Positions 23,475 through 24,292 of a stretch of 64,000 bases of DNA are shown in pieces. The DNA is from an uncultured Chloroflexia bacterium (GTDB lineage: Bacteria > Chloroflexota > Limnocylindria > Limnocylindrales > CSP1-4): contig CAWFXA010000001.1 of NCBI GenBank assembly GCA_963819655.1, positions 588,481 to 652,480 on the forward strand. Direction: 5' to 3'. The notes below the pieces were generated by a model. That model worked only from the letters and a program-made list of their open reading frames with translations. It did no database searches and had not been told where the DNA came from. The number at the start of each line of letters is the position of its first letter. The first letter of the stretch is position 1. The translations under genes and the position numbers were made by a program.

Positions 23475-24020
23475 GTGTTCATCCTCTTCGCCGTGCCGGT
23501 CGGGCTCGTACTGGGCTTCCTGATGGGTGGACGACTCGATCGCCTGTCGGAGATCCGGTTCGCATGGGCGTGGCTGGCCATCGTCGGACTGGCCGTGCAG
23601 ATCCTCTTGTTCTCGACGCCGGTCGGCGGCTCCTTCCGCGGCGGGGTCGGCGAGGCCATCTACGTCGCCTCGACGGGCCTCGTGCTCATCGCGGTCTGGC
23701 GGAATCTGCGTGTCCCGGGGTTGACGCTGGTCGCGCTCGGAGCGATCTCCAATCTCGCGGCCATCGTGGCCAACGGTGGCGTGATGCCCACGACCCCAGG
23801 GGCCCTCGCGGCGGCCGGCCTCGATCCGCTCGATGGCTTCTCGAACAGCTCGGTCGTGCATGATCCTGCCCTTGCGCCGCTCACGGACATCTTCGCGATG
23901 CCGCCCTGGCTGCCATTCGCGAACGTCTTCAGCATCGGCGATGTGCTGATCGCGCTCGGCATCGTCGTCGTGATCGCCGTCGGGATGCGTCGCGGAGACC
24001 CCGCCCACCACCCCGCCTGA
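23475..24020 (+). CDS. DUF5317 family membrane protein
   Basis: GGRLDRL, SNLAAIVANGGVMP, LTDIF..VFSIGDVLI motifs; multi-TM. Confidence 0.85.
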   Translation: MFILFAVPVGLVLGFLMGGRLDRLSEIRFAWAWLAIVGLAVQILLFSTPVGGSFRGGVGEAIYVASTGLVLIAVWRNLRVPGLTLVALGAISNLAAIVANGGVMPTTPGALAAAGLDPLDGFSNSSVVHDPALAPLTDIFAMPPWLPFANVFSIGDVLIALGIVVVIAVGMRRGDPAHHPA

Positions 24021-24193
24021 CGCCCCTGCGCCGGTGGCGGCGCGCACCGGAGACGCAGCTGGTCAGCCGCTCGCTGGTACCGATGGCCTATGGCTTCGCC
24101 CGCGGGCCCCTCGTACGGTGCATCGCGGGGACACCTTCCGTCCCCAGCACTCATCGAACAACCGCCGCTCCGTCAGAAAGAAAAGGGAACGCG

Positions 24194-24292
24194 ATGAAGA
24201 ACATCATCAAGTCGGGAGCGTTCCGGACGCTCATGCTCCTGTCCGTGCTCGCCAGCTCCGGCCTCGTGTTGGAGGCGGCACGCCGCTGGTAG
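24194..24292 (+). CDS. 32-aa peptide MKNIIKSGAFRTLMLLSVLASSGLVLEAARRW
   Basis: A-rich AAAGAAAAGGGAA RBS before ATG 24194; double stop TAG TGA; C-terminal motif shared with 35479..35562. Confidence 0.8.
   Translation: MKNIIKSGAFRTLMLLSVLASSGLVLEAARRW

Follow-up and report, generated by a model that had tools for sequence, protein, structure and literature searches.

The stretch of DNA analysed here (the window: 64,000 nucleotides, G000:C1:588481-652480) comes from an uncultured Chloroflexia bacterium whose genome has 69% G+C and is assembled in 3 contigs. It contains a gene for a membrane protein of the DUF5317 family (DUF5317-A) and, starting 173 nt past the stop codon of this gene (24018-24020), an open reading frame (ORF) for a 32-residue peptide that we call P1. 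The ATG of P1 is at 24194, its TAG at 24290-24292, and a TGA follows immediately, making a double stop. The translation is MKNIIKSGAFRTLMLLSVLASSGLVLEAARRW, as a first-pass annotation made from the sequence had given it. That annotation had paired P1 with a second ORF of similar layout elsewhere in the window (P4), and neither of the two peptides has a Pfam or NCBIfam match at E<=1. The upstream protein is a member of PF17248, with a score of 102.5 bits (gathering cut-off 25) over positions 2-150 of the 151 of the profile. The coordinates of these and other features are collected in Table 1.

The P1 gene is almost certainly real, and its product a small membrane protein from a new family. Among 86,477 stop-to-stop frames read from the six frames of the whole genome, 13 have ARRW as their final four residues. 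Twenty-two frames end in [AG]R[RK]W, and a strongly hydrophobic stretch precedes the tail in only 3 of them, namely P1, P4 and C2:109955-110047 (MIRPVIDRAWRVAMILGPILAIALTLVAARRW). A hydrophobic stretch at positions -20 to -5 is present in 113 of 60,274 frames, among which RRW is the commonest three-residue tail (3 cases); this filter was chosen post hoc, and the real test is conservation in relatives. Both the P1 and the P4 ORFs are retained at syntenic places in relatives, and the small downstream ORF in the relatives' fetched loci keeps its frame, ribosome-binding site (RBS) and length (e.g., MKNLIKSQAFRTLMLLSALVSSGLVLEAARRW and MQVLKSQAFRVVMLLSALASSSLVLMAGRRWGP). Pairwise codon differences fall mostly in third positions (36/22/64 and 36/22/92), and synonymous changes outnumber nonsynonymous ones (65 versus 40 and 68 versus 47). 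In one relative (G024), the open frame spans just 39 codons, with an identical ATG, and the 32-codon reading is therefore the conserved one. The view that the locus is a non-coding element or a chance ORF could point to the lack of an RNA contig across it: the runs listed number 24, 2 of them RNA, with small shares, and X19, X20, X1 and X2 gave no RNA contig across 24194-24292, which is not evidence of absence. The retention of frame, length, RBS and stop across genera, the excess of third-position changes, the short open frame of G024 and the P4 orthologues, which keep hydrophobicity and tail while the sequence of their transmembrane (TM) helix drifts, make this view extremely improbable. The conservation that the first-pass annotation had made the test of its ORFs was thus found for both. 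One locus is broken: in L066 (G015:C14:28300-30900), DUF5317-A lies in three overlapping frame fragments and the ATG of P1 is out of frame, with no stop past RRW, reflecting either assembly indels or a decayed locus.

The family is previously undescribed, and we name its members GxRW-tail peptides. The source genome carries four lineages (P1 to P4) of one single-pass layout: the N-end is basic, a TM helix follows, and the tail reads [G/A]-x-[R/K]-W. A profile of the peptides found downstream of DUF5317 matches three places in this genome: P1 (E 2.7e-16), P2 (E 6.2e-14) and P3 (E 2.2e-12), of which P3 belonged to the seed of the profile. P2 (VKANLARFTWALTLLASMALTVGAGIRWN) lies directly 3' of a second stand-alone DUF5317 gene (DUF5317-B), and a gene for an OmpR-type regulator comes after it. 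P4 was considered as a further member of the P1/P2 family; the P1/P2 profile does not match it, and it is a separate lineage that has only the layout and the tail in common. Its orthologues show a drifting TM core and a constant [G/A]RRW tail followed by 0-2 residues (e.g., ..LIEFGRRWGP, ..IVDYGRRWNP and ..AAGAGRRWL). P4 has a YHS gene and an ABC permease gene as neighbours, and P3 adjoins a gene for a cupredoxin-like lipoprotein (PF13473, L001:5251-5733, minus strand); the cupredoxin-like and YHS genes are both metal-related.

The conserved positions of the P1/P2-type peptides extend over their whole length. In 86 distinct sequences, the most conserved columns are K/R5, R10 (84), L15, L18, A19, A22 and L23, followed on the tail side by A27 (86/86), G/A28, R/K30 and W31 (85). 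The spacing 15/18-19/22-23/26-27 corresponds to one helix face rich in small residues; K5, R10, this face and the tail are all conserved. Net charges probably favour an orientation with the N-end inside and the tail outside. The first-pass annotation had given the consensus LVx[D/E]xARRW-stop and had located the conservation at the C-terminus. The R-W tail is indeed common to unrelated lineages; the strict ARRW-stop is not, the actual ending being [G/A]-x-[R/K]-W plus 0-3 residues, and the N-terminal part is also conserved within each lineage. Conservation along the whole length suits an integral membrane partner, and together with the near-identical tail of the four lineages it appears less suited to a set of specific pheromones than to a membrane partner or to a recognition motif held in common.

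We searched 61 related genomes for DUF5317 and for the peptides. DUF5317 is present in 35 of them, including 34 of the 36 genomes of the window's family, and in 0 of the 24 genomes of a sister family with 1.1-Mb genomes. The peptide profile (threshold E<=0.01) has 84 matches in 35 genomes. For 35 of the 84, a DUF5317 match is found no more than 1.5 kb away, in all 35 cases on the same strand and with the peptide downstream; 33 of the best 42 of the 84 matches are placed in this way. An independent set was obtained by a separate draw of named records of metagenome-assembled genomes, restricted to DUF5317 loci that continue for 500 nt or more on the downstream side (n=79). A family peptide lies at most 1.3 kb downstream in 46 of these 79 loci, and 8 family matches fall elsewhere in them. 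The source genome itself contains two paralogous pairs, DUF5317-A followed by P1 and DUF5317-B followed by P2, and a further family of the class (G179, G170) also shows the order DUF5317, riboswitch (see below), peptide. In more distant Chloroflexota, a 28-residue ORF ending in GAGIHWT (MKYAYRLALVGGAIFSALMASGAGIHWT) starts 53 nt past DUF5317 in L049, and a small ORF ending in GAGGKWG lies 847 nt downstream of DUF5317 in L048. The association with DUF5317 proposed in the first-pass annotation therefore exists as a positional link. The link is not obligate, and on balance we think that the peptide belongs functionally with DUF5317. Other Chloroflexota (L041, L052 and L054) have ORFs of about 100-110 codons immediately 3' of DUF5317, whose products we take to resemble NHLP/Os1348-type (LigA-like) proteins.

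The sister peptides are preceded by a riboswitch of a class named for a second messenger, cyclic dimeric guanosine monophosphate (c-di-GMP), a finding absent from the first-pass annotation. Directly upstream of P2-type peptides we found 17 aptamers of the c-di-GMP-I clan at or above the Rfam gathering score, one of them in the source genome. RF03167 (c-di-GMP-I-GGC, gathering 59), a variant reportedly defined by Weinberg et al. in 2017 in PNAS, is the best match of 16 of them (59.2-65.8 bits), and RF01051 (gathering 35) that of the remaining one (53.1 bits). One aptamer column has the A of the classic consensus where the GGC model has G. Tandem riboswitch-peptide units exist, and the riboswitch unit of many relatives has as its second ORF a P1-like peptide (..LASSALV.EAG[HQR]RW.). 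RF03167 matches occur in 52 of 121 genomes across the class (a tally that includes the unpublished genome G393, whose loci were not used). We fetched 30 such loci: the first ORF behind the aptamer encodes a family peptide in 8, another small TM peptide without the tail in 5, and in the rest a larger protein, which mostly looks secreted. For the P2 lineage, a place of the family in c-di-GMP-controlled physiology is quite probable; the c-di-GMP tie of P1 in the source genome is indirect. Our literature search returned no paper on a c-di-GMP riboswitch controlling a tiny or small membrane protein, nor on Limnocylindria with c-di-GMP; GEMM (c-di-GMP-I) riboswitches are treated in PMC7266159, and two further papers list the c-di-GMP-I-GGC model.

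Some further observations concern this riboswitch class. ORFs of 31-35 codons for hydrophobic peptides without the R-W tail come first behind RF03167 aptamers in L131, L136, L138, L145 and L146, and the class may control several kinds of tiny membrane peptides. The source genome has a second RF03167 aptamer outside the window; the product of the ORF behind it is not a family peptide but a larger protein that has Pro/Thr-rich repeats and a TM or signal segment. After P2 (L150, +118 past the riboswitch) lies a 35-codon ORF that ends in ..IVIESGHRWG and lacks a hydrophobic core. Its tail resembles that of the relatives' second peptide (..EAGHRWR), and it may be a decayed second cistron.

Table 1. 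Features of the P1, P4 and P2 loci. Bare numbers are positions in the window; C1 denotes positions on the contig of the source genome that contains it.
Feature	Position	Strand	Evidence or remark
DUF5317 copy A (DUF5317-A), 181 residues, five predicted TM helices, conserved loop 100-153	23475..24020	+	PF17248, E 2.8e-29
Inverted repeat GGTG..N..CACC, just past the DUF5317 stop	24033..24048	+	In most orthologous leaders (alignments A2/A3)
Motif GTAC-N-GATGG-N-C-N-ATGGC	24077..24094	+	Invariant columns in 14 leaders
TACGGT, -10-like hexamer (TANNNT), 19 nt past the GTAC motif	24114..24119	+	T, A and final T invariant in 14/14 leaders
Hairpin GGGGAC..GTCCCC, presumed 5' untranslated region (UTR)	24127..24145	+	G-run/C-run hairpin kept in 14 leaders
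RBS of P1, AAGGGA, 6 nt upstream of the ATG	24183..24188	+	Orthologues have AAGAAGGGA or similar at equal spacing
P1, 32-residue single-pass membrane peptide, MKNIIKSG..EAARRW, stop included	24194..24292	+	Conserved in relatives
S9 (prolyl oligopeptidase family) peptidase, 685 residues, PD40 repeats, convergent with P1	24339-26396	-	
Hairpin CGGCCGTCC-GACCA-GGACGGCCG, then TTTCG, possible terminator	24350..24377	.	Read from the sequence; lies inside the convergent S9 peptidase gene, at its 3' end
P4, 27-residue peptide MFQRIRQSLVALLPVVAALVGDLARRW, fourth lineage, same tail	35479..35562	-	Syntenic after the YHS gene in relatives
P4 leader: ATAAGTCGCAGCTAAGCG (35662-35679), GATACT (35648-35653), hairpins, GGAGG	35563..35679	-	Conserved in 11 orthologous leaders
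YHS-domain protein, upstream of P4	35687..35986	-	PF04945, E 5.2e-15
DUF5317-B, second stand-alone copy	C1:507319-507834		
c-di-GMP-I clan aptamer ahead of P2	C1:507981-508058		
P2	C1:508096-508182		
35-codon ORF after P2	C1:508176-508283 (approx.)		
Second RF03167 aptamer	C1:464653-464729	-	

The leader of P1 (24021-24193) has no match to the c-di-GMP-I clan (RF01051/RF03167) at the gathering score in the window. With Rfam, it gives only chance-level matches to unrelated families at E<=10, and 11 orthologous loci give none at E<=0.1. A riboswitch in this leader was considered and rejected: RNAalifold gives the alignment an energy of -5.3 kcal/mol with 7 pairs, and no consensus fold results. 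Because there is neither a consensus fold nor an Rfam match, we read the leader as an element that acts at the DNA level and resembles a promoter. A regular expression for its GTAC motif hits 13 distinct places, each of which precedes a P1-type peptide, with one exact-class copy in the source genome, and the motif is a putative protein-binding or -35-region promoter element. The hairpin of the presumed 5' UTR shows some two-sided changes (e.g., GAGAAC/ATCTCC and GGGAAC/GTTCCC), and only 3 of its pairs are in the RNAalifold consensus. The whole would be a putative promoter with a bound factor, which the sigma-70 scan does not call: consensus scans of 23300-24600 found no terminator and no sigma-70-type promoter on either strand. 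P1 would then be a small unit of its own (promoter-like element, short leader, RBS, ORF and hairpin) directly after the DUF5317 gene; the hairpin that follows it is not called by a strict terminator scan. The leader of P4 matches no Rfam family across 12 loci.

A Pfam scan of the window's proteins shows P1 flanked by DUF5317, a DinB-like gene and the S9 peptidase gene. The S9 neighbour is also retained in G014, a genome without DUF5317 at this place. An RNA contig of a relative spans 23363-23617, and a DNA contig of X2 spans 24103-24323. The only Rfam match at gathering score within the window is a tRNA gene (49569-49640, minus strand).

DUF5317 occurs in 92 of 301 sampled Chloroflexota genomes (a tally that includes the unpublished genome G290, its loci unused); the Thermus and Thermotoga controls have it too. 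Eleven positions are invariant in 66 homologues: N77, G89, N93, I97, N100, P105, D138, S153, G155, D156 and G162. The AlphaFold2 model of DUF5317-A (pLDDT 93.5) shows five TM helices; its loop at 100-153 is structured and is predicted by the positive-inside rule to face outside. Among 41 longer DUF5317 proteins, 29 are fused to an exporter domain of the major facilitator superfamily (MFS), 3 to EAL and 1 to PF04239, and 8 have no further domain. The third copy of the source genome is such a fusion, a 680-residue protein with an N-terminal DUF5317 and an MFS_3/MFS_1 part (L063:843-2882, minus strand), just upstream of which lies an HD_5 (HD-GYP-type) gene (L063:2919-3860, minus strand); the region corresponds to about 601342-604359 of G000:C2. 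The literature search returned no paper naming DUF5317 or these peptides.

The first-pass annotation had made DUF5317 the probable peptidase that processes the peptides, a role that the comparisons do not bear out. Foldseek found nothing at E<=0.001 for the DUF5317 model against the PDB, a PDB sequence search returned only carbamate kinase (E 0.22), and a search of the ESM Atlas gave no usable match. In a full scan of 48,161 chains with a first model, signal peptidase II (LspA, PF01252) appeared twice as a weak match at 18-20% identity: 6ryp_A at rank 5 (Z 5.2, root-mean-square deviation [rmsd] 3.8 over 95 residues) and 5dir_A at rank 7 (Z 5.1, rmsd 3.2 over 93 residues). For a second model, that of a homologue with 36% identity, the matches listed (best 50, down to Z 5.3) did not include LspA. 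Profile comparison by hhalign gave a probability of 9% with the genome's own LspA and of 3% with 29 LspA sequences (L116 was excluded from the LspA alignment; the unpublished genome G102 enters only a tally of 41/41, its loci unused), and shows no profile relation to PF01252; a Pfam scan of DUF5317-A at E<=1 returned PF17248 only. The source genome carries a normal LspA. D138 and D156 are candidate equivalents of the catalytic Asp pair that LspA has at the outer membrane face. A complex prediction of DUF5317 (A4) with the peptide (A1) reached a score of 0.01 (mark 0.32) and was counted neither for nor against binding.

The explanation to which we give about an even chance is that P1 is a membrane-resident peptide that packs against DUF5317 and tunes it within a c-di-GMP-governed envelope physiology. 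Its short basic N-end would probably be cytoplasmic, its single TM helix would expose the small-residue face, and the [G/A]-x-[R/K]-W tail would probably lie at the outer face of the membrane. The peptide would remain in the membrane, with the helix face and the tail packing onto a polytopic partner, for which the best candidate is DUF5317, either as a stand-alone protein or within an MFS exporter fusion. It would tune the activity of this partner, and the sister copies behind the second DUF5317 gene would be switched by the c-di-GMP-class riboswitch. Several points weigh against this explanation. No family peptide lies downstream of 33 of the 79 DUF5317 loci, in two genomes P1 and its leader persist although the upstream DNA that was fetched contains no DUF5317, and the P3 and P4 lineages are unlinked to DUF5317 and lie beside the cupredoxin-like and YHS genes. 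The linked cases are drawn almost entirely from one class of kin genomes, in which inherited synteny inflates the counts. P1 and P2 have regulatory elements of their own, so co-expression with DUF5317 is not implied. For aptamers assigned to the GGC variant by covariance model, c-di-GMP is a putative ligand, and both the translation of P1 and its binding to DUF5317 are predictions.

Other explanations were weighed as well. The peptides might be autonomous membrane-active agents, such as type I toxins or membrane-perturbing effectors, whose dose is set by c-di-GMP or by a promoter of their own and whose order after DUF5317 is merely inherited. They are small, hydrophobic, multi-copy and sometimes in tandem; the separate regulation, the two genomes without DUF5317 upstream, the unlinked P3 and P4 and the 5 of 30 riboswitch loci with tail-less small TM ORFs would all fit. 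We nevertheless regard this explanation as fairly unlikely, given that order and orientation are the same in 35 of 35 nearby cases, that two paralogous loci as well as more distant Chloroflexota have the pair, and that a strictly conserved helix face and tail suggest a specific partner over general membrane damage; nor is an antisense RNA or antitoxin visible, though no dedicated search was made. It is unlikely, too, that the peptide serves an envelope machinery other than DUF5317, as a small subunit or for its assembly, e.g., in a metal- or secretion-related complex that recognises the GxRW tail. The genes beside P3 and P4, the tail common to all four lineages, which fits one common reader, and the DUF5317 loci without a peptide speak for such machinery; against it, no candidate co-occurs consistently, and DUF5317 is by far the strongest positional signal.

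The first-pass annotation had favoured a precursor of a pheromone or ligand. In this explanation, the peptide would be inserted with the N-end inside and the C-end outside, and DUF5317 as an intramembrane peptidase would cut it behind the small residues (..A-G|x-R-W), releasing the tail or the hydrophobic remainder as a signal; the DUF5317-MFS fusions would process and export. The signal-peptide-like layout (basic n-region, hydrophobic core), the invariance of A27 and G/A28 ahead of the tail (86/86), the invariant Asp pair and the invariant Asn in the conserved loop of DUF5317, the ranks of the LspA structures in the first model and the exporter fusions in 29 of 41 longer proteins would agree with this. 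However, the profile comparisons, the second model and Foldseek do not connect DUF5317 with LspA, the tail is near-identical in four paralogous lineages and would give no specificity between them, K5, R10 and the helix face are conserved equally with the tail, and the putative released product has just 3-6 residues. As that annotation had already observed, no receptor gene lies beside either peptide; the neighbours of P1 other than DUF5317 are the DinB-like and S9 peptidase genes. We consider a pheromone precursor quite unlikely. A more specific form of the idea, in which DUF5317 would represent a new kind of intramembrane aspartyl peptidase, its core LspA-like, and Cys-less, lipobox-like 'signal-peptide-only' genes (L-x-A-G|x-R-W) would provide its substrates, seems to us improbable. 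A cut at the outer leaflet would free an R-W peptide of 3-6 residues or leave a trimmed hydrophobic product, the DUF5317-MFS proteins would be process-and-export machines, by analogy with peptidase-containing ABC exporters, and the riboswitch would gate substrate synthesis.

Several known systems resemble parts of this arrangement. Small membrane proteins modulate larger ones in the pairs MgrB-PhoQ, AcrZ-AcrB and KdpF-KdpABC. Like these modulators, P1 has about 30 residues and one TM helix, lies beside a candidate partner and has a conserved helix face and its own regulation; unlike them, the GxRW family, which has no sequence relation to them, has a strictly conserved [G/A]-x-[R/K]-W tail that is predicted to be extracytoplasmic and four lineages per genome, with a riboswitch in one, and its binding to a partner is a prediction. 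P2-type peptides, directly behind gathering-score aptamers and in tandem units, are like c-di-GMP-I (GEMM) regulons (RF01051/RF03167), from which P1 differs by the absence of Rfam matches in its leader. The precursors of SHP-, ComS- and Agr-type peptide pheromones are short, too, and like P1 they combine a basic N-end and a hydrophobic core with an aromatic motif conserved at the C-terminus; unlike in these systems, P1 has no gene of the Rgg/AgrC receptor type or the AgrB/Eep/PptAB type beside it, and GxRW peptides are conserved along their whole length, with one tail in all paralogues. Enterococcal sex pheromones are cut from lipoprotein signal peptides, with which GxRW peptides share the n-h-c layout and the small residues ahead of the tail but not the Cys or the mature domain. 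DUF5317 is like LspA in the weak similarity of one model and in an invariant Asp pair 18 residues apart; unlike LspA, it matches neither PF01252 nor the LspA profile, the fold match was not reproduced, and the genome has its own LspA. P1 is small, hydrophobic, multi-copy and intergenic like type I toxins, from which it differs by its partner-like helix face and tail and its fixed place after DUF5317; no antisense RNA was seen, none having been specifically searched for.

DUF5317 is a widespread membrane family, to which a small-protein neighbour and a c-di-GMP riboswitch give a first testable context. The variant c-di-GMP-I riboswitch class gains a concrete target, a membrane peptide of about 30 residues, in an uncultured lineage of soil and sediment, and a multi-copy family joins the small proteins overlooked by gene callers. 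If the peptidase explanation were true, the locus would represent a new route from a second messenger to an extracellular peptide, and Chloroflexota would have a peptide signalling or envelope-remodelling system gated by a second messenger.

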